Part shown: positions 178-12,415 of the stretch, piece after piece
Layout: each line of letters starts with the position of its first letter
Position numbering within the stretch: position 1 is the stretch's first letter
Virus record (IMG/VR): IMGVR_UViG_2541047931_000014
Coordinates: 1 to 12,415 of that record
Direction: 5' to 3' (one strand)
From: a virus
Lineage: Duplodnaviria > Heunggongvirae > Uroviricota > Caudoviricetes
Length of the DNA: 12,415 bases
Translations under genes and position numbers: made by a program
Notes under the pieces: model-generated
Database searches by the model: none
Told to the model about the DNA's origin: nothing
What the model saw: the letters and a program-made list of their open reading frames with translations, nothing else

Positions 178-280
178 GTTCACAGATAAAACACTCTCCA
201 GGAAACCCGGGGCGGTTCAATCCGTACGGGGACGGGATACCGTTTTAATTCACAACAGCGAACAGAGTAATTACAGGGGA
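1..280 (+). mobile_element. Right end of an IS3-family insertion sequence (partial); exact terminal inverted repeat not identified
   Basis: The transposase ORF ends at 177 and the next gene's RBS and start are at about 275-287, so the IS terminus must lie in about 180-280. I cannot place the inverted repeat without its left-end partner. Confidence 0.4.
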
Positions 281-284
281 AGGC

Positions 285-782
285 ATGACAAAGCTGACCA
301 TAAACAGAAAACCGAAGGGCATTTACGGCACGCCGCAGAAAACAGCACAGGCGGCGCAGCAGCAGAATAAAACCACATCGGCGCATAAAGTGATGCCAGA
401 TAACCAGAACACACAGCAGAAGCTCACAGGAGCAACACCGCGGCGGCGTATGACCAAACAGCAGCGTAAAAACCGCAGACGCGTTAACCGTCTTATTGAG
501 CTATGGCCTGAATTATTCAGCCAGGAATCACCTAAGCCGCTTAAGGTGGGGATATTTGACGACCTGATACAGGATATTGCCGCGAGAGGTATTTCACTCG
601 GACAGGGAACACTACGCGCAACGCTGGCGCGTTATGTGCAGACTCCGCGCTATTACCGCGCCCTGGTAGCTGGTGGCGCGCGTTACGACCTGAAAGGCCA
701 GCCGTGCGGCGAGGTAACACCACTACAACAGACGCACGCAGGAAAACTACTGGAGGAGATGAATGGAAATAGTAAGAAATGA
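285..782 (+). CDS. ProQ/FinO-family RNA-binding protein (FinO-like RNA chaperone) with a basic, Gln-rich N-terminal extension
   Basis: ATG at 285 preceded by AGGGGAAGG. The C-terminal half reads [14 protein letters not shown]...[37 protein letters not shown], matching the ProQ/FinO domain signature as I recall it from E. coli ProQ (PLKIGIF.DL ... Y ... G..R.DL.G.PCGE). The N-terminal ~75 aa are K/R/Q-rich and low complexity. Confidence 0.75.
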
Positions 783-1179
783 TCACGCACATGGTCGCCG
801 TGCAGGTGATCACATTGTGGATGAAATTGCGGAAAAACAAAGAGTTGACATTGTTGTCAGTGTCACAGTCGAGAGCGCGAAGCGCCAAAATAAGCGTATA
901 AATGATCATTCAGATGTACATGGTGTGATCACTCGTTTACGCCAGACTTTTGTAACTCGTGAAGAGATGATTGAAGCTATTGACCAGCATACAGCATGTA
1001 TCAGCGTCAGGGATATACCGGAGATCATTGCTAACTACTTCATGATCACCAGACGCCTTTACCGGAGAAAAGACAAGAGCACGGTTAACCGTCTCCTGAT
1101 GTCTGATATTCGCGAATACCTGCAAGAAAGGGGCTATGTGAATCCACCAGAACAGCACTACGGAAGAGTCGGAGGCTAA
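763..1179 (+). CDS. Hypothetical protein, 138 aa, translationally coupled to the upstream FinO-like gene
   Basis: ATG at 763 preceded by GGAGGAG (752-758); overlaps the 3' end of the FinO-like gene by 20 nt. No recognisable motif. Confidence 0.5.
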
Positions 1180-1419
1180 CTAAAACCCTGTACCGAAGAG
1201 CGGCGGCGCGATGGGGTGAAGTAATGCAGTTGGGGAACTGACAAGGAACGGTATTACATATCAATGCGACGACTGGAATGTTCCAGGAAGGCACAGAGGC
1301 CACCGAAGCAACCGGATAATTTAGAAGACCTGAAACGGTCGCTTAAACGCACTGAAAAAGAAATGGGGATAGATGGGATCGGGAAATCAGTATGGCGTAA
1401 CTACCAGAAGTAAGCACAG

Positions 1420-1445
1420 AGCCGGAGCAATCCGGCTTTTTTTTG
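1420..1445 (+). terminator. Rho-independent terminator
   Basis: AGCCGGA-GCAA-TCCGGCT hairpin (1420-1437) followed by an 8-T run (1438-1445). Confidence 0.65.
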
Positions 1446-1544
1446 GCTGAAATCAATCAATCTGTTTTTGTGATAGAAATATGTTTATCTACCACTTTTT
1501 CAGATCAATAATGTGCATAGTTTAGTCAGTAAGAGGAAATTGCT

Positions 1545-1751
1545 GTGAATTGTATTAACGACCTGAACACAGGCGATGTCAGAGGTGGTTCCGTTCATCT
1601 GGATGCACAGACCGTGATGCGCCTTAAGCAGTACAGAATCGACCATGTGAACAATCACCCTGATCAGCCATTACCAGGCGTGGCGCAGATTGTCAGACAT
1701 GCCGTAAACGCCTGGCTTAATCAGAATGGTTTTGCATCGGGGGGTGAGTAA
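1545..1751 (+). CDS. Small hypothetical protein (68 aa); possible small DNA-binding regulator (speculative)
   Basis: GTG start at 1545 with AAGAGGAAA about 8 nt upstream, lying 100 nt after the terminator in an AT-rich promoter-like stretch. The segment GSVHLDAQTVMRLKQYRID ... VAQIVRHAVNAWL loosely resembles a strand-helix-helix layout, but this is not a confident call. Confidence 0.4.
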   Translation: MNCINDLNTGDVRGGSVHLDAQTVMRLKQYRIDHVNNHPDQPLPGVAQIVRHAVNAWLNQNGFASGGE

Positions 1752-1847
1752 TGAATCGCTGGTACAGCATCAAAGCAGAGGGACGCCAATGTTATCTAAC
1801 TCAGGTTTTATGAATTCTGACTCCCGATTCAAAATAGGAGGTTACTA

Positions 1848-4379
1848 ATGCCAGTCGTACCAACAGTATCCGGACGTCAGGTTGAGAGCCGTGGAGTTCA
1901 GTCAGCAGGCTTACAGACGTTTTCTCAGCCAGGTATTAGTGATGCTTTTGTTCGTGCAGGAGCAGAAGCAATTGATATTCTGGGTCAGGCAAAACAGCGT
2001 GCCAATATTGCCTTGGTTCAGGAGGCATCCCTTAAACTCAGTCAGACAGGCAGTGATCTGCTGAATAATCCTGAAACAGGATTGCTTAACCTGAAAGGGA
2101 AAAATGCTATTGGAAAAGGCCATGAGTATACACAGCAGTTTGATGCTCAGATCGAACAACTGGCTATGTCGCTGCCGGATGAACAGGCTCGTAATGCTTT
2201 CATGCAGCAGGCGCAGCAGCAGCGTATTCAGTTCGCTACGCAGGCCGGGAGGTACGAGATAGGGCAAATAAATGCCTACGAAGAAGGCCAGTTTCAGGCT
2301 ACGCTGCTGAACAATGGTAAAAATGCCGCAGCATTGTATGGCGACAACGCAGCATACATATTGGCTAATACGCAAACTTTCCAGCAAATTGAGGAGTACG
2401 GCATTGCGCATGGCTGGAGCGACGAGCAGATTCGGGCCAGGAAAATCGAGTTTAAAGAAGCAACAGCAAAAGCAACTGCTCAAAATGCTATTGGAGCAAA
2501 CTATCTTCAGGTAAGACAGCAAAACGGCGAGTTAAGCGATACTGCTGCTGGAGCTCGCCGTGCTGTAGCAGATAGTGGATCTTCCGATCGTATCCGCGGT
2601 ATACGCAACAATAACCCCGGCAATCTTGAATACAGCAAAACTAATCCGTGGGTTGGGCAGACTGGTGATGATGGTCGCTTTGCCAAATTCGAAACCCCTG
2701 AACACGGTATTCGTGCATTAGGGCGGAACCTGATGTCGTATCAGCGGCAGGGTATTGATACCGTCAGTGAGATAATTAATCGCTGGGCACCGCCCACTGA
2801 TAAAAATGACACAATGTCGTATATCAAAGCAGTGTGCGAACAACTTGGCGTTTCTGCTGATGAGCCTCTCGATGCATCTAATCCGGATACCCTGAAGGCG
2901 CTTTGTGCAGCCATTATCCATCATGAAAACGGTAGCCAGCCATACAGTGATCAGCAGTTAACTGCTGGTGTTAGTGCCGCGCTGGGGCTTTCTCAGCTAC
3001 CGACAAAAAATAAACGTTATACCGGTGTAGCCTGGTTCGATGCTTTAAGTGAATCAGATCAGGCCAGCGTGTTGCGACAGACTGATGCACTAGCCAGACA
3101 ACAGCAGGCTGAATATAAAACGATGCTCGACAGCCGGGTTCGCGATGCGACGGCTGCGTATATGCGTGGCGTTGAATTTCCTAACCCACCTGGTGAGGAT
3201 GATTTTATTGCAGCTTATGGAGTCAGAGAAGGAAACCTGCGATATACCGAGTTTAAGAATACGCAGATCGCCGGACAGTATATAGGCTCTTTCCGCAACA
3301 TGCCGACAAGCAGCATTACAGCATATGTTGAGCAATTACGCCCGGATACTGGTGATACAGGGGAGGGGTATGCGTCTCGTGCGGAGTTATTCGACCGGGT
3401 ATCGGCGGCAGCCACGAAGGTAATAACCCAGAGGCAGAATAATCCGTTTAGTGCAGCGGTGGAAATCGGATCCTATAAGCCGATCACCAGCAACAACCCT
3501 GACGACATCACTGCTGAGGTGGCTAACCGTTTCTCGTCGCAGGAAAGCTTACGCGCGTTGGGAATTAATGCCCCAATCCTCAATAGTGAAGAGGCGGCTG
3601 CGCTGGCACAGCAGGTGCGCGGCACTCAGAACGTTGACCAGACAATTAAACTATTGCAGAGCATGGGGGAAAAGCTACCTGCGCCAGCAATACGGCAGGT
3701 GGCATCTGTAATTGCTCCGAACAGTGCAGCAACAGCCTATTCTGCGCTGCTGCTGGGCACGCCGGATAATCAGTACGATAACACCAGGCCGTCGATCCCA
3801 TATAGTCAGTTCATCGGGTATAAGCCGACGATGAACAAGTACGACGTTGCAAAGGTTATTCTTTCCGGTGACCAACTACTGAATCCGACGAAGGCTATGA
3901 AGAATGCGGGCATAACTCCGGTACAGTTGCCGAGCGAAGATAAAATGAAGCGCGCTTTCGACGAACAGGTTGGTAATGCATTTGCCCGTAACCCAGAGAC
4001 GCGCCAGATCAGTTATAGCCTTTTCAAAGCCGCTTACGCAGGAATCGCTTATCAGTCTGGTAATACGTCTATGACGAGCACAGATGCGGTTAACTCCGAT
4101 GTGGCGGAGAAAGCTGCGCAGTACGCAACAGGCGGTGTATACAAGAGATTTAATGGTGGTGATGTTGTAATGCCTTTCGGCATGGATGAATCCACTTTCA
4201 AAGATCGCTATACCACATCAGCGAAACAAGCACTGAAAGATGCCGGACTTAACGTAAATGCAGTGTCAAACTTCACACCAGTTAATATCGGCAATAACCG
4301 GTATCGGCTGGTAAATGGTAGCGGACGCTGGGCAACAGATCCCAGAACCAATGAAGCTATTGTCGTGAGGGTTGAATAA
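1848..4379 (+). CDS. Large hypothetical protein (843 aa); phage ejection/internal-virion-like, with a conserved-looking NNPGN region that may be a cell-wall-hydrolase-like domain
   Basis: ATG at 1848 with AGGAGG at 1836-1841; 2.5-kb uninterrupted frame; Ala/Gln/Gly-rich. RIRGIRNNNPGNLEY...GRFAKFETPEHGIRALGRNL...INRWAPP lies at about nt 2590-2950. No Walker A or helicase motifs. Confidence 0.85.
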   Translation: MPVVPTVSGRQVESRGVQSAGLQTFSQPGISDAFVRAGAEAIDILGQAKQRANIALVQEASLKLSQTGSDLLNNPETGLLNLKGKNAIGKGHEYTQQFDAQIEQLAMSLPDEQARNAFMQQAQQQRIQFATQAGRYEIGQINAYEEGQFQATLLNNGKNAAALYGDNAAYILANTQTFQQIEEYGIAHGWSDEQIRARKIEFKEATAKATAQNAIGANYLQVRQQNGELSDTAAGARRAVADSGSSDRIRGIRNNNPGNLEYSKTNPWVGQTGDDGRFAKFETPEHGIRALGRNLMSYQRQGIDTVSEIINRWAPPTDKNDTMSYIKAVCEQLGVSADEPLDASNPDTLKALCAAIIHHENGSQPYSDQQLTAGVSAALGLSQLPTKNKRYTGVAWFDALSESDQASVLRQTDALARQQQAEYKTMLDSRVRDATAAYMRGVEFPNPPGEDDFIAAYGVREGNLRYTEFKNTQIAGQYIGSFRNMPTSSITAYVEQLRPDTGDTGEGYASRAELFDRVSAAATKVITQRQNNPFSAAVEIGSYKPITSNNPDDITAEVANRFSSQESLRALGINAPILNSEEAAALAQQVRGTQNVDQTIKLLQSMGEKLPAPAIRQVASVIAPNSAATAYSALLLGTPDNQYDNTRPSIPYSQFIGYKPTMNKYDVAKVILSGDQLLNPTKAMKNAGITPVQLPSEDKMKRAFDEQVGNAFARNPETRQISYSLFKAAYAGIAYQSGNTSMTSTDAVNSDVAEKAAQYATGGVYKRFNGGDVVMPFGMDESTFKDRYTTSAKQALKDAGLNVNAVSNFTPVNIGNNRYRLVNGSGRWATDPRTNEAIVVRVE

Positions 4380-6439
4380 TGTCTGATGTTTTTTCTTTGG
4401 CTCCAGAAGGTCAGGCATGGATTGACGACAAAACAGTTGCCAACCCAGCAAGGCCAGAAGACTACGATCCGACTCCCTTCCAGGGTTCAGGTACTGCACT
4501 TTTTAGCGGCGTGGCGGAGGGGGCTCTCGGTCTCGCGCAGTCTGCCGTCGGATTCAGCAAGCGCCTGATTAGCGATCCGGCATTTACCGCAGACGTGGCA
4601 CCGACTGTTAACATTTTTCGGGAGATGTTCCCTGATGCTGACAAAACACTGAATGATACATACGACACGATCGGAAAACAGTTACAGGATGCCCGCAGCT
4701 ATGTGAAGCCTGATGCAGGCAGCCAGGGAATGGCGGCAGAGGTATTAAATGAGCTTGGTAAATTTGTTCCTGCAATCGGAACAACTATGTTTGGCGGTCC
4801 CCTCATCGGCGCTGCTACAACCTTCAGTTCTACGTATGAGCAATCCTATCAGGATTTTAAAGGGAAGGGAGTAGACGAGGCTACGGCGCGTAACCTGGCA
4901 ACGCAGCAGAGCCTTTTCAATGCTGTGGGTATGGCCTTACCCGCTGCCGTCGGCACCACACTGGCAACGCGCATTGCCTCAGGTGTGGCAATCAACACCG
5001 GATTCGGTGGACTGAACCGTTACTCAGTAGGCGCAACACTGGAGGAAAAAGGCTACACGGAGATGGCAAAACAGTACCGGGTATTTGACGGTCAGGCGAT
5101 GTTAGTCGATGCCGTTTTAGGCGGGGTCTTTGGTGGCGTTCATCACCTGACTACCCATAATAACCATGATGGTACAGAGTCGAACATTTCTGCAGAAGAA
5201 ATAAAATCAACTTTTGGTGAACATTATCAGCAATCTCCTGATGGTAACATTGAGTCAATGGTTCGTGATTTATCTGATTCAGGAGTAATAGAACTTATTA
5301 ATGAACCAGCAATAAAAAATAGTGATGGAGAAATACTTCTGAATAAAGGTCATGTGACAGTAGCTTCTGGAAAAGAACCAATAATAAGAATAAATATTAA
5401 TGGATTAAAAGACCATGAAGAACTGTTAGAAACCCTTCATCACGAGGCGCTTCATCTTGAGCAGCGCCATTACCCTGACTGGAAGGCCAGAAAGCTAGCT
5501 AATGCTGTACTTAAATCTGCAAACAAGCATTCTGACTATCCTGAATTTGCATATGGGATGTCACAATATTATGAATATAAGAAAAGGGGTGAGTACCCTG
5601 AAACATATCCTGAGTGGTTGTACGCTGAAGAAGTTGCCGCACATGCAGTAAATCCATCTCTAAAGACAAGCGTTTCATCATGGGAAAAAATTATTTCAGG
5701 TTTTAAAGCCTATATATTCAGATACAGTGGTATTCAGGTTGGAACCGTTACACCTGAGCAGTTACGGTTACTCGTAAGTATGCGTCTTCGCAATATGAAA
5801 CTGGAAGCCGCAGTAGAAAAAGTTTTTGGTATCCGGGCGAGGGAAAGAATAAAACCAAGCGATATTGATGCAGCCCACATTTTGAATGAGGGGCTTCATT
5901 ACGATATTGAATCGTCACCAGTGCTTCACACCAGCAATGAGAGCATCAACAGCCATGTTGACGCCATGGATGAAGCATACAGGCAACTTAATGATGGTCA
6001 GCCTGTAAATGTTGGGGGGATGGCGCGAGGGCTTGATGGTCCATTGCGATCAGATATATCTGATACTTACCAAGAGCAATACCATGAAATACAAAAGGTT
6101 TTTGAAGAAAATGGTGTCAGATATGAAACATCATCAGAGCCAATTAGTGAATCGCCTGTCCCTCGTGCTGAAAGTGCTTTCTCATCGGCTGGTGAACACA
6201 GAGGGGACGTCAGCGTTGATCCAGATACAGGGCAGGTTCTCTCATCCAACAGCTATGACCTTATGGCTGCCAGGGACATGGCTGTTGCCAATCCTGAGCT
6301 GACTATAGCTCACCCGGAAACCGGAAACCCGACAAAACTTTCTGATCTCCTGGCTGAGTTGGATGAACAGATTAAGACAGTCCAGAACGAATCGAAGGTT
6401 TATTCTGTAGCGGCAGCGTGCTTCTTGAGGAACCCATAA
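4379..6439 (+). CDS. Large hypothetical protein (686 aa); Gly-rich hydrophobic N-terminal half and a low-GC C-terminal segment containing an HEXXH (HEALH) motif
   Basis: ATG at 4379 overlaps the upstream stop (TAATG, 4377-4381). Gly/Ala-rich hydrophobic stretches (GTTMFGGPLIGAATTF, MALPAAVGTTLATRIASGVAINTGFGG, VDAVLGGVFGGV). HEALH is encoded at 5441-5455 within a segment of about 35% GC (about 5160-5760) versus roughly 45-57% in the flanking coding sequence. Confidence 0.85.
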   Translation: MSDVFSLAPEGQAWIDDKTVANPARPEDYDPTPFQGSGTALFSGVAEGALGLAQSAVGFSKRLISDPAFTADVAPTVNIFREMFPDADKTLNDTYDTIGKQLQDARSYVKPDAGSQGMAAEVLNELGKFVPAIGTTMFGGPLIGAATTFSSTYEQSYQDFKGKGVDEATARNLATQQSLFNAVGMALPAAVGTTLATRIASGVAINTGFGGLNRYSVGATLEEKGYTEMAKQYRVFDGQAMLVDAVLGGVFGGVHHLTTHNNHDGTESNISAEEIKSTFGEHYQQSPDGNIESMVRDLSDSGVIELINEPAIKNSDGEILLNKGHVTVASGKEPIIRININGLKDHEELLETLHHEALHLEQRHYPDWKARKLANAVLKSANKHSDYPEFAYGMSQYYEYKKRGEYPETYPEWLYAEEVAAHAVNPSLKTSVSSWEKIISGFKAYIFRYSGIQVGTVTPEQLRLLVSMRLRNMKLEAAVEKVFGIRARERIKPSDIDAAHILNEGLHYDIESSPVLHTSNESINSHVDAMDEAYRQLNDGQPVNVGGMARGLDGPLRSDISDTYQEQYHEIQKVFEENGVRYETSSEPISESPVPRAESAFSSAGEHRGDVSVDPDTGQVLSSNSYDLMAARDMAVANPELTIAHPETGNPTKLSDLLAELDEQIKTVQNESKVYSVAAACFLRNP

Positions 6440-9195
6440 TGAAACAGGCATGTGTTGAAGCTATTGCGCAGACACTTGGTCGCCAGCCAAAGGCTGATGA
6501 GCTGAAAAATATTGAAGATCGTATCAAAGAAGCTGTGCAGCATGTGCACAGAAAGAATGCAAAAGAAGGCAAAAGTGGTATTCCTGATGCTCAAACATAC
6601 ATGGATGCAGCAGAACTGGTACGCCAGCGTGTGGTTCATGATGTGTACAAGAAAAGACAGCGTGTTGCCCAGAATGCGATCGCCATCAGTAAAATTACTG
6701 ACACTCTCGATGCTAACATCCCGCCTGATCAGCAGACACCTGTTAATTTGCAGCAGTTTATTTTTGCTGGCCGACGATCGAGAGACAAAGCTGATATCTC
6801 CGTTACTTCTGCTGAAGAGCTTGCAATTGGGGCATATCAGGACTGGTCCCGTCAGCTCAGTGCTGAACTTCTAAAAGCAGGTGATGACGTCCGCAAATTC
6901 TTCGAGCAGAGCAGGGCGCTTGGAGAGCAGCGGTTTCGGAGTGTATTCGACAGGCAGGCGGCAAAGTCTGCACAACTCCAGATCCTGAAAGAAATTTATG
7001 GCGAAGATACCGGGAATCCCCTGGCGAAGAAAATTGCACAGATTTGGAAGGATGTAACAGGGCGTGTTCGTCATGAGATGAACGACAACGGCTTTGACAT
7101 AGGCCTGCGAGAAGACTGGCATACGCCATATGTGGATGATGCTGACCTTATTCGCAATGCCGGGCGCGAAGAATGGCTGGCATCGTTACCAGTGGCAGAG
7201 CAAGCTACAGTACGTCTTTCAGGTCGCCAGCCACCTATTGAGTTTGCCCGCCAGAAATGGGTTGATGACGCTTACAACACGCAGGATCGCAGCAATTACG
7301 TTAATCCTGACGGCAGCATTATGAATGACGTCGAGTACCGTCAGGCACTGGAAGCGATCTTTGAAACGAAGGCCACTGATGGGGCAAACAAAATTGAGCC
7401 CGGTACATTTATGGGAGACGGAGGAATAAAGAGCCGTGGTTCTCAGCACAGGGTGATGGCGTTCAAGGATGCGCAGTCACACTTCGCCTATATGGAGCGA
7501 TACACTCAGCAGCCGCTGGTGGGGGTGATGATGTCGCACCTGCAATCATCATCCAGGGATTTGGGCGTCGTTAAAGCCTTTGGTCCGGACGCCGAAAGAA
7601 ACTTTTCCCTGGTACTGGATCGCATCTATAAGCGCGCAGTAACAGGCGGGAAACGCAAAAAAGAAATGGAGGATGAGGCCAAATTAGTTGCCCGTATGTT
7701 CAACTCAATGGCTGGCCTAAATGGTGTCGCTTCATCGAGTGTGTTCTCTTCAGCAGTTGGTGGTCTGCGTAACCTGATGACCAGCGCCATGCTTGGCACC
7801 AGCGTACTGACAGCAACCAGCGACCAGGCAATTATGCGGGCAAATGCGCAGGCGCTGGGCTTTACCCGTGGTGGAATGCGGCTTTCCGTTAACACTATCA
7901 AAAACCTGTTTAGTGGAGATGCCAAAAAGGCGAATGCTGAACTCGGTCTGCTGGTGGATTCACATGCTGCTGTGGTTTCGAAAATGGGCGGGTTTGACTT
8001 GTCTCGCGGCATAACTGGCTGGTTCGCAGAGAAGACACTGAAGTGGTCCGGGCTGATCGCTATGGACCGCGCAAACAAAGCGTCGTTTGGTCTCCTGATG
8101 TACAAAAACATTGGCGAGCTGACCAGAAAATTTAAGACGCTGGACGATATAAAAGGAACCGATAAAACCATTCTGGCTAACAAGGGATGGAGCAATGAGG
8201 ACTGGGCCATCATGGCAGCGGCAGAACTCAGGCCGATGACTACTGCCGGGCATATGGGGATGACGCCAGACGCGATTTACGCTGTGCCCGATAACGTAAT
8301 CGCCGACATTATGGCAGACCGTATTGCCCGGATTCGTGCCGGGAGTGAAAAGGCACTGGCAGCCCTTGGAGATCTCCCTCCAGAACGCCTGAAACGGATG
8401 AAAGAAGCATTCGACGCAGAGGCTGAGCAGACCATCACGCGCATGATTCGTAATGCACGCGCTGAAGCAGCCCAGAAATTGCTGGGAATTACGCACGGTG
8501 AGATGACCAATGCTGTGACCACCGCTACGGGTATTGATACATATGCCCATGACGATGCTGGCGAGTTAATGAAGAGCTTCATGCTCTTCAAAACAACCCC
8601 ATTTGCTGGATTTCGGCAACTTGTTAACAGAACACGGGATTTGGACACCGTTCCGGCCATTAAATTTCTGGCCTCATATATCGGGGGAACAACTCTTGCT
8701 GGTATGTTTGCGATCCAGATGAACAGTTTGTTAAATGGTAATGATCCGCTGGATATGACAAAACCAACCACATGGGTTCAGGCTTTACTGAAAGGTGGTT
8801 CGTTCGGTATCTACGGTGATTTTATTTTCCAGGACCATACGCAATATGGCTCCAGCATCGGTGCCACTATGGGTGGCCCTGTGTTGAGCTTTGCAGAGCA
8901 GTTAACAAAATTACTGATTACTAACCCACAGAAGGCTCTACAGGGTGAAGAAACATCATTCGGTGCCGATGCACTGAAAACAGCCCGCATGATCACCCCA
9001 TTCGCAAACCTGTGGTATGCGAAAGCGATAACCAATCACCTGATATTGCAACAACTTCAGGAGATGGCAAACCCTGGTTACAATGATCGAGTAAGGGACC
9101 GCGCGCAACGGGAGTTCGACATAACGAGTTGGTGGGAACCGGGTGCTATTGCGCCACGTAGAGCACCGGATTTTGGAAAGGCGGTAGGGGAATGA
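6439..9195 (+). CDS. Large hypothetical protein (918 aa from the ATG at 6439; the track's 6418 start is an upstream in-frame GTG); ejection/internal-virion-like
   Basis: ATG at 6439 overlaps the upstream stop in the same TAATG arrangement (6437-6441), with GAGGAA 7 nt upstream. 2.75-kb frame. No nucleotide-binding motifs seen. Confidence 0.85.
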   Translation: MKQACVEAIAQTLGRQPKADELKNIEDRIKEAVQHVHRKNAKEGKSGIPDAQTYMDAAELVRQRVVHDVYKKRQRVAQNAIAISKITDTLDANIPPDQQTPVNLQQFIFAGRRSRDKADISVTSAEELAIGAYQDWSRQLSAELLKAGDDVRKFFEQSRALGEQRFRSVFDRQAAKSAQLQILKEIYGEDTGNPLAKKIAQIWKDVTGRVRHEMNDNGFDIGLREDWHTPYVDDADLIRNAGREEWLASLPVAEQATVRLSGRQPPIEFARQKWVDDAYNTQDRSNYVNPDGSIMNDVEYRQALEAIFETKATDGANKIEPGTFMGDGGIKSRGSQHRVMAFKDAQSHFAYMERYTQQPLVGVMMSHLQSSSRDLGVVKAFGPDAERNFSLVLDRIYKRAVTGGKRKKEMEDEAKLVARMFNSMAGLNGVASSSVFSSAVGGLRNLMTSAMLGTSVLTATSDQAIMRANAQALGFTRGGMRLSVNTIKNLFSGDAKKANAELGLLVDSHAAVVSKMGGFDLSRGITGWFAEKTLKWSGLIAMDRANKASFGLLMYKNIGELTRKFKTLDDIKGTDKTILANKGWSNEDWAIMAAAELRPMTTAGHMGMTPDAIYAVPDNVIADIMADRIARIRAGSEKALAALGDLPPERLKRMKEAFDAEAEQTITRMIRNARAEAAQKLLGITHGEMTNAVTTATGIDTYAHDDAGELMKSFMLFKTTPFAGFRQLVNRTRDLDTVPAIKFLASYIGGTTLAGMFAIQMNSLLNGNDPLDMTKPTTWVQALLKGGSFGIYGDFIFQDHTQYGSSIGATMGGPVLSFAEQLTKLLITNPQKALQGEETSFGADALKTARMITPFANLWYAKAITNHLILQQLQEMANPGYNDRVRDRAQREFDITSWWEPGAIAPRRAPDFGKAVGE

Positions 9196-9533
9196 AAAAG
9201 TTAAATACACCAACCAAAAGAGTTGGGGGGCTTCTGATTGTCATTGGAATTATATTTATACTTGCATCTATAATAGAAATATCAAGTAATGAGTTTGCTA
9301 TTTCTGATAGTCCATATTATCGATCGCTAAATGCATATGATATTATTTTTATGTATTTAGAGCGAATTACAGATACTTTCATCATGACTCTAACATTTCA
9401 AACATGGAGTAGCCGTTTCAGTATATTAATGTTAGTAGGGTTTTGTTTATTTATTGTTGGTGTTCTTATTTCATATTTTTACGATGCTGGAATTGGCAGG
9501 GTTGTTAAGTGGATAAGAACGGGTAATTGGTGA
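9192..9533 (+). CDS. Small integral membrane protein (113 aa, two predicted transmembrane helices), very low GC; candidate exclusion/immunity-type cargo
   Basis: ATG at 9192 overlaps the upstream stop (ATGA, 9192-9195). Hydrophobic stretches LLIVIGIIFILASII and FSILMLVGFCLFIVGVLISYF. GC is visibly much lower than in the upstream genes. Confidence 0.7.
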   Translation: MKKLNTPTKRVGGLLIVIGIIFILASIIEISSNEFAISDSPYYRSLNAYDIIFMYLERITDTFIMTLTFQTWSSRFSILMLVGFCLFIVGVLISYFYDAGIGRVVKWIRTGNW

Positions 9534-9864
9534 TTATAAGCAAGCTATTGGTTTCATTGTTTATATCGTTGTCGGAACTTTTTCAACTGACAGCAATCAT
9601 AGCCGGGCTTGAATCGTGGTGGGGATTGCACTGGATAATTGCAGCCCCATTGCTTTCATCGTGAGCTATATTCCATTTGTTGGAGCGATTGTTGGTATGG
9701 TTGGCGCTATGGATGTATGGTGTTGGGAGTGGTGGCAGGCTGGCCTTCTATTCTTTGGCGGATCATCTTTGCTATTGTCAGCGGTGGAATGTCATCATTT
9801 TTCGAATGGCTATCATTCAGAAAAAGAGCGTGACATGTCACAGGCCGCTTTCGCGGCCTTGTTT

Positions 9865-10026
9865 TTAACGAATGCCACCACCGCCCGGGCGGGAATCCGC
9901 AGAACGCCCACCGCAGCGGGAGCCGTCAGCGGCAGTATCGCTGTCGTGCTGACAACGACCGGCAAAGGCCTGAGTTGAAGCTACCAGAGACAACAAAACG
10001 AACAGTGCAGCAAATGCTTTTTTCAT
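9865..10026 (-). CDS. Candidate small secreted peptide (53 aa) with an N-terminal Sec-type signal peptide
   Basis: Minus-strand ATG at 10026-10024 encodes MKKAFAALFVLLSLVASTQAFA|GRCQHDSDTAADGSRCGGRSADSRPGGGGIR, with an AxA-type cleavage site. Candidate promoter TTGACG-N16-TATAGA lies just upstream on the minus strand (about 10040-10070). It is antisense to overlapping plus-strand ORFs, so assignment is uncertain. Confidence 0.35.
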   Translation of the reverse strand: MKKAFAALFVLLSLVASTQAFAGRCQHDSDTAADGSRCGGRSADSRPGGGGIR

Positions 10027-10096
10027 TGTGAAATTTCCATCTATAAGCCACCTCGATGTGGCGTCAATGAATGTAGCACTGACTTTTGTTTCGTCC

Positions 10097-10119
10097 ACAA
10101 AAAAGCCCGCGCTGCGGGC
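10097..10119 (-). terminator. Rho-independent terminator acting on the minus strand
   Basis: GC-rich hairpin GCCCGC-GCT-GCGGGC (10105-10119) preceded on the plus strand by an A-run (10097-10104), so the minus strand reads hairpin then TTTTTTGT. Confidence 0.5.
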
Positions 10120-10728
10120 TTACCAAAACTTGTACCACGGGGATTTATCCTTCAATGGACAATCCTTCCATCGTGTGGCCAGCCATTCATATTCTTTGTC
10201 TTTTCTTCAGTACCGGCTTTGCATCTTCTACACCCTGAAAGATGTCGTTTTATGGTGTATCTGATGATTTATTCCCTAACAATAGATATTCGAAAAATTA
10301 ATCAGTTAAAACAATTATTTGGATAATTTCAGGTAAAAACTATCTTAATCTTCTGGTGGATCTCAATGCGCCGTGACGGTATCGGGATTAAGGGCGTGGA
10401 TATTCGCGATATATGCCGCTACACCCCTCAACAGTAATAGATATGCGCTTTTCACTCTCTCCTTTCACTGCTGAGAACGGCAACAACGTGCCACAGGAAC
10501 GCGCTGTAATCGATTCTGACGCACTTAATTGCGTTGGGTAATGGTTTGCCAGCCTGTGGGGGTAACTCTGTTTTATGAGGCTTTGGCTATAGTGCAAAAA
10601 TGCACTTTGTCTTGCCTCTCAATTTGATGAGACTGGAACGACAACAGGACAGACCACCAGCAACAGTTACCGTATTCAGCCGTTCTGTGGCACCAGTGGA
10701 ACTATCCACCCCTGCTTTCAGCAATGTG

Positions 10729-10782
10729 TTTGCGGGTTATTTTGGGGCGTTTGCGGGTTATTTGGGATGTTTTGCGGGTTAT
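10729..10782. repeat. Iteron-like array: three perfect 12-bp direct repeats TTTGCGGGTTAT at 21-bp phasing
   Basis: Copies at 10729-10740, 10750-10761 and 10771-10782, separated by 9-bp spacers. Confidence 0.85.
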
Positions 10783-10857
10783 GCGATGCTTGAATAATGA
10801 ACAGTGCATTTTGCAACATATTGATACTAAAGAACAAAAAATAGTTAGCACGCTAAG

Positions 10858-10884
10858 ATAACCCGGTAACCCGCATAACCCGCA
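10858..10884. repeat. Three tandem inverted copies of the iteron core
   Basis: ATAACCCGG (10858-10866), TAACCCGCA (10867-10875) and ATAACCCGCA (10875-10884) are reverse complements of TGCGGGTTAT. They are separated from the direct array by a 75-bp AT-rich spacer. Confidence 0.75.
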
Positions 10885-11406
10885 CTGTTTTGTATATATA
10901 TACGAAAAATTGCATTCAGGAGGGGGGATCGAAATCCCTACAACCCATTGCTTATGGGACCGCCGCCTCGTCAAATTTTTACACCCGCGAAATAAAAAAT
11001 ACTTCACGCTGGTGGGCATGATGCTGATATGAGAGGCTTCCATAACGCCACCATTCGAAACTATGCAAATCTGCATAGAAAAGGGGATGCCTGATACAAT
11101 ACCCTCGCCCGATAAAATCACACCGATAAACTCATCTGCCACGAGTAGAAAGAGCGAACGAACCCGATACGCAGTAATGCTGGTCGGGTCCAGCTTTTTA
11201 AGGCGGCTGTAGATATCAGGCCATCCGTGATCATCCACCAGCGTAATTGCTGAACGCTTTAAAAAAACGTGTACATAAGGGTGTACATAATCAAAAACCG
11301 CATTAGAAAGAAACCAGCTACAATGCGGCATTGAAGCCAACACTCTACAAACAGATTCAACATCGAATAACTCGTAACGCCAATTCTTACTTTTCCGCCT
11401 TCACAA

Positions 11407-11438
11407 ATGCCGCCACTCAAACAGAGCGGCATTTTTCT
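11407..11438 (+). terminator. Rho-independent terminator with no plus-strand ORF feeding into it (orphan)
   Basis: ATGCCGC - 11-nt loop - GCGGCAT (11407-11431) followed by TTTTTCTT. All three plus-strand frames are closed immediately upstream. Confidence 0.5.
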
Positions 11439-11530
11439 TCCCCGCAACATTCAATTCTGTTTTGCGTGCCTGCTCCAGATTTTGCGATGTTTTTTTGCCC
11501 AGCACACTGAGAACGTGAGATACTCACAAC

Positions 11531-11546
11531 TGTATATAAATACAGT
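11531..11546 (+). promoter_or_regulatory. LexA operator (SOS box) in the dinD promoter
   Basis: CTGTATATAAATACAG matches the CTGT-N8-ACAG consensus and sits 45 nt upstream of the dinD start, overlapping a TATATAAAT -10-like element. Confidence 0.8.
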
Positions 11547-11590
11547 TACAGATTTACTTTCTTTGCAATTGATATCACATGGAGTGGGCA

Positions 11591-12415
11591 ATGAACGAAC
11601 ATCATCAACCTTTTGAAGAGATAAAACTGATTAATGCAAACGGAGCAGAACAATGGTCAGCAAGACAACTTGGGAAACTACTGGGTTATTCAGAGTATCG
11701 TCACTTTATACCTGTATTAACGCGCGCCAAAGAAGCCTGTGAGAACAGTGGTCACACAATTGATGACCATTTCGAGGAGATCCTCGATATGGTCAAAATT
11801 GGCTCAAATGCCAAAAGAGCATTAAAAGACATCGTACTCTCCCGCTATGCCTGTTACCTGGTAGTACAAAACGGCGCCCCTGCGAAACCGGTCATTGCGG
11901 CAGGGCAGACTTATTTTGCTATCCAGACCCGACGGCAGGAGCTTGCTGACGATGAAGCATTTAAGCAACTTCGTGAAGACGAAAAGCGTCTGTTTCTGAG
12001 AAATGAGTTGAAAGAACATAACAAACAATTGGTTGAGGCAGCACAGCAAGCTGGGGTAGCGACAGCTACTGATTTCGCCATATTTCAGAATCATGGTTAC
12101 CAGGGGCTGTATGGTGGATTAGATCAGAAAGCTATTCATCAGCGGAAGGGGCTGAAAAAGAATCAGAAGATCCTGGATCATATGGGTTCAACAGAACTGG
12201 CGGCTAATCTCTTTCGAGCTACCCAAACAGAAGAAAAACTCAAGCGGGATGGCGTGAATTCAAAACAGCAAGCAAACACCACACACTTTGACGTGGGTCG
12301 CAAGGTGAGGCAAACCATTCAGGAACTTGGCGGAACCATGCCTGAGGAGTTGCCGACCCCGCAGGTCAGCATCAAGCAGTTGGAAAACAGTGTAAAAATT
12401 ACAGAGAAGAAATAG
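11591..12415 (+). CDS. dinD: DNA-damage-inducible protein D (DinD), apparently intact at 274 aa
   Basis: ATG at 11591 with GGAGTGGG just upstream (the track's 11579 start is an upstream in-frame alternative). The sequence MNEHHQPFEEIKLINANGAEQWSARQLGKLLGYSEY... matches E. coli DinD as I recall it, and the LexA box directly upstream supports SOS regulation. Stop TAG at 12413-12415. Confidence 0.8.
   Translation: MNEHHQPFEEIKLINANGAEQWSARQLGKLLGYSEYRHFIPVLTRAKEACENSGHTIDDHFEEILDMVKIGSNAKRALKDIVLSRYACYLVVQNGAPAKPVIAAGQTYFAIQTRRQELADDEAFKQLREDEKRLFLRNELKEHNKQLVEAAQQAGVATATDFAIFQNHGYQGLYGGLDQKAIHQRKGLKKNQKILDHMGSTELAANLFRATQTEEKLKRDGVNSKQQANTTHFDVGRKVRQTIQELGGTMPEELPTPQVSIKQLENSVKITEKK

Follow-up and report, generated by a model that had tools for sequence, protein, structure and literature searches.

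How the chromosomal gene dinD has come to stand behind a long run of DNA in which its usual neighbour yicC is absent, and to which gene the orphan hairpin just upstream of dinD belongs, are the questions raised by the right-hand end of the window, that is, of the whole 12,415-nucleotide stretch analysed here (IMG/VR virus record IMGVR_UViG_2541047931_000014). A sequence-only reading started from E. coli K-12, where yicC lies immediately upstream of dinD; it proposed that accessory DNA abuts or has displaced this ancestral neighbour, and it placed the right boundary of the island within positions 11000-11400. The adjacency on which this proposal relied is real, as yicC adjoins dinD without any island in strains J53, O157:H7, GN05505 and CUVET19, and about 95% of genomes, with every flank haplotype represented, have yicC abutting dinD. 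The boundary also falls within the interval anticipated. Specifically, when window positions 10300-11600 were compared by megablast with 5,426 complete E. coli genomes, 4,745 of them were matched, and most matches start at query base 1053, which is window position 11352, and mostly fall beneath the gene pair yicC and dinD. In other words, homology to K-12 runs from 11352 onwards, the breakpoint is 11351/11352, and the DNA to its left is foreign. The features of the region are collected in Table 1.

In the K-12 derivative J53 the 3′ end of yicC reads ...CAGATTCAGAACATCGAATAA and is followed by a 221-bp spacer, hairpin included, that corresponds to window 11371-11591, and then by dinD. Across the junction the window reads ...CTCTACAAA / CAGATTCA--ACATCGAATAA / CTCGTAACG..., where the middle part is what is left of yicC, a remnant of 19 nt closed by a TAA at 11368-11370. 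The earlier observation that no plus-strand open reading frame ends before the hairpin is therefore correct for frames of at least 50 aa ending between 11000 and the hairpin, and incomplete with regard to this remnant, which was missed in the list of reading frames because of its shortness. The hairpin itself has a 9-bp stem, AAAUGCCGC/GCGGCAUUU (11405-11434), followed by UUUUUCUU, and its predicted energy is -12.2 kcal/mol (z = -2.6 relative to shuffled sequences). Such a stem, running into a U-tract past the end of a gene, has the features of an intrinsic (Rho-independent) terminator, as predicted from sequence, and an identical one stands equally placed behind yicC in J53. The suspicion of an orphan terminator was thus well founded: the predicted terminator is yicC's own, stranded here about 19 kb from the gene. 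Further downstream, the element CTGTATATAAATACAG at 11530-11545 is presumably the LexA box of dinD, an assignment based on the consensus CTGT-N8-ACAG and on the SOS regulation of this gene.

Table 1. Coordinates of the features discussed, in window numbering
Feature	Position	Strand	Basis or remark
Epsilon15-type ORFs: gp15 (lytic transglycosylase type), 843 aa; gp16, 686 aa; gp17, 925 aa; small gp18-position ORF
Spurious 213-codon ORF	10702..11343	-	spans arm, P1-like element, cos and iterons
Candidate replication origin	10729..10884	.	iteron architecture
Cos-like packaging site	10919..11000	+	phiP27 similarity
Non-coding island tail	11001..11243	.	also in tRNA-Gly-site copy
Island-side attR arm, specific to yicC-type integrase	11244..11351 (108 bp)	+	sequence comparison
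Two tandem GTGTACATAA copies	11269-11278, 11281-11290	+	starts 12 bp apart
attR core CAGATTCA--ACATCGAATAA	11352..11370	+	6 last yicC codons (Q I Q N I E *)
Ancestral yicC-dinD spacer	11371..11591	+	99.2% identity to J53
Predicted yicC terminator, hairpin and U-tract	11405-11441	+	fold; same position in J53
dinD (DNA damage-inducible protein D), chromosomal	11592..12415	+	RefSeq homologous position; Pfam Bro-N match

A search for a target-site duplication, which had been suggested as a check, gives a clear answer in the relatives. The duplicated site is the 21-bp core CAGATTCAGAAYATYGAATAA, whose second copy lies at attL beside yicC and the integrase gene int. Both attL and int are outside the window, and the full configuration was read in close relatives (98-99% identical), not in the source genome; the closest relatives share 97-99% identity across window 220-12415. 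In strain UTAK-6 the element measures 18,985 bp from core to core, and it is about 19-20 kb long among the close relatives. Its left end reads ...GCGCGAG / CAGATTCAGAATATCGAATAA / GCTATCAGC..., and int starts 189 bp downstream (core 2069-2089 and int 2278-3540 in the UTAK-6 sequence). A terminator-like hairpin (AAAGCCCG...CGGGCTTTTTTG) occurs in UTAK-6 at 2126-2153, directly past the restored yicC stop. This island-supplied hairpin, a putative terminator, replaces the one stranded at attR. With respect to the fate of the neighbouring gene, the sequence-only reading was right about displacement: it is site-specific integration, and not loss, that has moved yicC about 19 kb upstream.

Excised forms of the island are also on record. 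The chromosome of strain Z1323CEC0013 carries a related island of about 12 kb at this site, whose cores start at 2940 and 15092, a distance of exactly 12,152 bp, and the same assembly contains a circular record (pZ1323CEC0013_1-4) of 12,152 bp, the spacing between attL and attR. In this circle the arm of the window type runs directly into the core, and the core into the int-proximal arm, upstream of int, forming attP. Strain NRZ14408 has a second, separate excised record ('phage_14408_2') carrying attP, and three metagenome contigs carry attP as well. Consequently, attB, attP, attL and attR have all been found, a complete Campbell set. Between the circular attP of Z1323CEC0013 and its chromosomal attL and attR there are mismatches at core positions -1 and 15, which counts against the circle being a simple excision product, since such a product should match the chromosomal junctions. 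The chromosomal DUF927 gene of the same strain has an internal stop that is absent from the circle. Three further metagenome contigs (L027, L028 and L033) carry the usual attR arm and core followed by a different flank (GCGACATATCTCCGTAGG...), which differs both from the yicC-dinD spacer and from the arm usually seen on the int side; a tandem island, another host context or another type of attP could account for it.

Taken together with the abrupt onset of chromosomal homology and the gene adjacency at the empty site, these findings lead us to read window 11244-11370 as attR, the right-hand junction of a satellite island, with a probability of about 0.9. According to this model, a satellite bearing a tyrosine integrase would recombine its own attP with an attB located within the final 21 bp of yicC. 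The island would bring replacement yicC codons and its own terminator beside int, so that yicC is intact at attL, while the original yicC tail and its terminator would be left at attR, shortly before the dinD promoter. Compared with attB, attL and attP, the attR core of the window is 19 bp long and lacks 2 bp (positions 8-10), so that the cores of attL and attR are not identical over the overlap segment. This inequality bears on the present mobility of the island and not on its origin. The exact boundary and the stranded terminator are identified here; the type of junction is textbook and has already been documented.

Indeed, both the kind of element and its integration in yicC are already known. 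An int-bearing insert with attL and attR between yicC and dinD has been described in strain SCEC020022 (PMC10050402), and this island is 98.1% identical to the window; in addition, reference phage-inducible chromosomal islands (PICIs) integrated in yicC have been reported (10.1101/2022.07.18.500453). The arm and core occur beside dinD in 256-309 of the 5,426 complete E. coli genomes (about 5%), with a matching attL in 280 of 5,426. A search for the exact arm pattern in a set of one representative genome per species gave no match, and none was found outside E. coli.

The island side of the junction is built as a module. Window 11261-11351 is common to different islands at the yicC site, with 92-99% identity, and about 250 genomes and 19 metagenome contigs match only this arm of about 90 bp, which at least three different island bodies adjoin. 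The other border of the module is 11243/11244. In strain 82.0312 (L022, 3687-23100) a tRNA-Gly gene (glyU) beside yqeG is the insertion site of the same body, with its cargo and with the tail as far as window 11243, and this copy departs from the window after 11243. The integrases of different island bodies at the yicC site are 94% identical, and the one at the tRNA-Gly site is only 29% identical to the yicC type. The comparison indicates that satellites which are identical in other respects exchange their int/att modules as a whole.

Within the arm lie the two tandem GTGTACATAA copies that the sequence-only reading had pointed out. A 10-mer repeated within 20 bp appears in 0.65% of shuffles of 11000-11440, and the pair is non-random and meaningful. 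It is invariant in 16 of 17 isolate attR sequences and in 19 of 19 metagenome sequences, save for one base in two of the rows. The contained 9-mer GTGTACATA has five copies in the 41 kb of the UTAK-6 sequence, about 0.3 being expected, and all of them are in att arms: two in tandem in the attR arm (20971+ and 20983+), and two in tandem plus one inverted upstream of int (2198+, 2210+ and 2241-). The int-proximal arm has four TGTACA words in all, the one beyond the three GTGTACATA copies lying between them. At the tRNA-Gly site the attR arm carries a different word, TGTGTATAGA, twice and 12 bp apart, and the module before int holds related direct and inverted copies of it, in the same layout as in the yicC module. 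The yicC-type Int has the Pfam domain Arm-DNA-bind_3 together with central and catalytic domains. In other words, the 9-mer stands in each of the att arms and nowhere else in these 41 kb, and it is accompanied by an Int with an arm-binding domain. On account of its distribution, its conservation and its co-variation with the integrase module, the GTGTACATAA repeats are probably arm-type sites for the N-terminal domain of Int; the pair and the four int-side TGTACA words would then be bound by this domain, giving rise to an intasome. Between the tandem repeats and the core, the conserved arm also contains a 7-bp inverted repeat, CCGCATT...AATGCGG (11298-11304 and 11322-11328, with a 17-nt loop), as read from the sequence. 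A search for the IHF consensus returned no match in the att arm.

Concerning the position of strand exchange, natural variation of the target offers some indications. At empty sites the yicC ends vary synonymously at core positions 6 (T/C), 12 (C/T), 15 (C/T) and 18 (A/G), and these alleles are linked to the flank haplotypes. At attR, the alleles of positions 15 and 18 agree with the chromosomal flank without exception, and that of position 12 agrees in nearly all cases; the base at position -1 is of the island type in all junctions except one, and position 6 is found in both states in attR as well as in attP records. This pattern suggests a crossover between core positions 1 and 11, approximately, a placement that is tentative because the flank type concerned is represented by a single empty-site genome, and position 6 would probably be inside the overlap. 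The putative core-type inverted repeat, ATTCA/TGAAT, extends over 5 bp only and is imperfect in many alleles, which counts against well-defined core-type sites.

The loss of 2 bp from the attR core is not peculiar to the window. In a sample composed of the window and of sequences L001, L003, L006, L009-L020 and L023-L042, 25 of the 29 attR cores at yicC are deleted, with at least 10 distinct alleles. The full 21-bp core is present in 4 of 16 isolate attR junctions (window included), and all 13 metagenome junctions with a chromosomal flank are deleted. The deletions measure 2, 4, 5, 6, 7, 9, 10, 11 or 16 bp; their left break is at core positions 6-11 in every one of the 25, with right breaks ranging from 9 to 25. 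The arm of about 90 bp and the right flank are essentially free of indels. Cores of attP are full length in 4 of 4 cases and those of attL in 59 of 60 (spread sample), and about 23% of attR cores are intact, as judged by the length of 60 matches sampled from across all 258. In the two strains for which an excised record exists separately, the attR core is intact. The particular 2-bp gap of the window is shared by three island bodies and occurs in two flank haplotypes; UTAK-6, GF4 and EA13 have it, and cores of full length are present in A287, CUWW11, Z1323CEC0013 and NRZ14408. Two explanations of this gap were discarded: a mismatch in the overlap, tied to the host C/T allele at core position 12, as both alleles occur in the intact and in the deleted class, and a reciprocal shift of the crossover (a secondary attB), as UTAK-6 has an attL of normal length and an attR 2 bp short.

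These observations have to be weighed against other ways of reading the locus. That the 11 kb upstream of dinD might be ancestral DNA deleted in K-12-like strains, with no island ever inserted, is a formal possibility with nothing further in its favour, and it deserves next to no credence: it is opposed by the roughly 95% of genomes, across all flank haplotypes, in which yicC abuts dinD, by the duplicated core, the adjacent integrase and a circle of exactly the attL-attR length, and by the presence of the same body at the tRNA-Gly site with a different integrase. Within the island reading, the tandem GTGTACATAA copies could conceivably be bound by a protein other than Int, either a host factor or an excisionase or regulator of the AlpA type, given that the island encodes an AlpA/HTH_17 protein and that excisionases, too, recognise direct repeats within a single att arm. 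The word is, however, present in both arms, in direct and inverted orientation just before int, as is typical of arm-type Int sites, and Int does possess an arm-binding domain; moreover, the word is swapped along with the integrase, though neighbouring small genes are swapped as well. Binding by another protein is consequently improbable, and arm-type Int sites remain our preferred assignment.

A closer contest concerns the origin of the attR deletions. They might represent the neutral decay of a useless 21-bp gene remnant, in which the integrase plays no role and after which the island may still excise. Being without a coding role, the attR remnant tolerates indels, and since indels at attL would alter yicC, this alone could explain why 59 of 60 attL cores are full length. 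Hence, neutral decay combined with selection on attL accounts for the asymmetry between attL and attR; it does not account for the fixed left end, as 25 deletions with at least 10 alleles in 29 junctions all start at positions 6-11, beside an arm and a flank that are essentially free of indels and with attP invariably of full length. The intact attR of both strains with an excised record, against about 23% intact overall, speaks in the same direction, and we consider neutral decay unlikely. The reading that we prefer, tentatively and at somewhat less than even odds, is that the attR core is a deletion hot spot made by the integrase, which would repeatedly and irreversibly lock islands in the chromosome. 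The enzyme would cut abortively at an edge of the overlap, close to core positions 7-10, and 2-16 bp of the chromosomal half-site would then be lost on one side; about three quarters of the integrated copies, that of the window included, would be dead for excision, with attL and attP remaining intact. As far as the window is concerned, the 2-bp loss probably disables excision, so that the island would be stuck in the chromosome. If the deletions are made by the integrase, the series would represent a natural footprint of the cleavage site and a concrete mechanism that turns satellites into permanent residents of the genome. This anchored deletion series is the only part of the present analysis with a possible wider significance. 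The preprint 10.1101/2022.07.18.500453 mentions 'attB drift' for PICIs in yicC, without this deletion analysis, and an account of 'grounded' prophages (Ramisetty and Sudhakari 2019; PMC6379469) puts forward the idea that attL/attR mutations immobilise an integrated element; it names such mutations in general terms only, and its passages on attR contain no anchored one-sided deletion series.

As for the kind of element, its genes and sites, by which it is known here, make it very probably a Gram-negative satellite of the PICI type, of about 19-20 kb. In elements of the UTAK-6 type, the intact end of yicC is followed by the tyrosine integrase, a small AlpA/HTH protein, AntA/Bro-N genes, an Icd-like ORF, DUF4222, a DUF927 primase-type protein, SSB, ProQ/FinO, PerC, four large ORFs and dinD. 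The order int - alpA - (Bro zone) - pri/rep - ori - late/accessory zone, within 10-20 kb, is that of PICIs, as seen in the annotation of three island copies (L001, L003 and L022) complemented by Pfam. With PICIs of the EcCICFT073 type (Fillol-Salom et al. 2018/2019) the island shares an integrase gene located at one end, the small HTH protein, the Bro/AntA zone, a primase-type replication protein (here DUF927), an iteron origin, a cos site, captured phage late genes, a size of 10-20 kb and integration in yicC, which is on record; it differs from them in a cos that resembles phiP27 rather than lambda or phi80, and in a cargo consisting of an epsilon15 gp15-gp17 cassette. In contrast, it has only an Icd-like ORF and a DUF927 protein as themes in common with P4-like satellites, to which it probably does not belong; the P4 hallmarks psu, sid, delta and alpha primase are not annotated in any of four island copies, a comparison made on annotation only.

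Integrases of the lambda/P4 type target icd, tRNA genes and the 3′ ends of genes, bringing a replacement sequence. The attachment site described here shares with the heterobivalent sites of that type an identity block duplicated at attL and attR, a gene end supplied by the island, arm repeats in both arms and an Int with an arm-binding domain; it differs in that the core-type inverted repeats of the island are weak and that the attR block is damaged in most copies. In Vibrio, the genomic islands (MGIs) MGIVflInd1, MGIVchUSA1 and MGIVmi1 also integrate in the 3′ end of yicC by means of a tyrosine recombinase (PMC5704250). Target gene, target end and type of recombinase are therefore shared; compared by description only, those islands are mobilised by conjugative elements (SXT/R391) and carry an oriT, whereas the present one has a cos, late genes and an Icd-like ORF.

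The cargo occupies window 1848-9533 and is a cassette of the epsilon15 gp15-gp18 type. Its 925-aa ORF is 88.8% identical to gp17 of epsilon15, and the cassette encodes virion proteins of a podovirus, of the tail-hub or ejection type, carried by a satellite. Sister islands at the yicC site have P22-type ejection genes in place of this cassette. Towards the left end of the window, a gene for an RNA chaperone of the ProQ/FinO family (285-782; Pfam E = 1e-24) lies beside the SSB gene of the island.

The region from the cargo genes to dinD is made of cis-acting sites (ori, cos and att arm) and not of genes, a distinction that is useful for annotation. Its first element, probably the origin of the island as judged by its architecture, consists of three iterons TTTGCGGGTTAT in direct orientation, spaced by 21 bp, then an AT-rich spacer and three more iterons in inverted orientation; the spacer contains the only IHF consensus of the window (10814-10826). 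This putative origin and the DUF927 primase gene are separated by the late-gene cassette, which puts them about 9 kb apart. Next comes a segment with 85.9% identity over 82 bp to the cos region of the Stx2e phage phiP27, where a cos site of 10 nt is annotated between HNH and terS. With respect to phiP27, the cos core of the island has one base deleted and one substituted (CGCC-GCCTC versus CGCCCGCCCC). Shorter matches to the cos region are present in Klebsiella prophage-like phages.

Further to the right, a 71-bp element (11130-11200) has 83% identity to P1/P7 DNA immediately downstream of rlfB and comprises a hairpin, GAACCCGA...TCGGGTCC, with a T-run; a terminator-like site is located at 11179-11194, and the homologous DNA is non-coding in P1/P7. 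Homologues are also found in many P1-like plasmids. A derivation of this match from the rlfB gene itself was rejected, as the annotation puts the homology past the rlfB stop. Between the cos-like and the P1-like element lies the palindrome CTATGCA-AATC-TGCATAG (11061-11078), which the sequence-only reading had listed along with the tandem repeats as lying in the junction interval. It is present as described, in the island body rather than in the att arm, and is no more frequent than chance would have it: inverted repeats with 7-bp arms and a loop of at most 10 nt occur in 17% of shuffles of 11000-11440, and across the window there are 0.64 of them per 441 bp. We have consequently dropped it as a functional site.

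The long minus-strand reading frame that runs through these elements does exist and, in agreement with the earlier opinion, is non-coding. It gave no Pfam, PHROG or PADLOC match, and a search of 5.8 billion proteins retrieved only eight, mostly near-identical E. coli sequences; having no protein family in either kind of search, it was dropped as a gene. Its stop shifts with an A6/A7 homopolymer, its start sits in whichever att arm is present, and PGAP leaves it unannotated in several genomes. No RNA family was found when the entire window was scanned with Rfam (E <= 1). A different minus-strand frame is found shortly before the origin: a small ORF (9865-10098), unannotated in UTAK-6 and in an interval of A287 that is likewise devoid of a minus-strand CDS, which begins with a signal-peptide-like stretch and matches PHROG 3117 (E = 1e-53) and PHROG 14503 (7e-40), both described as 'membrane associated protein' in the moron category, with a terminator-like hairpin nearby at 10103-10121.
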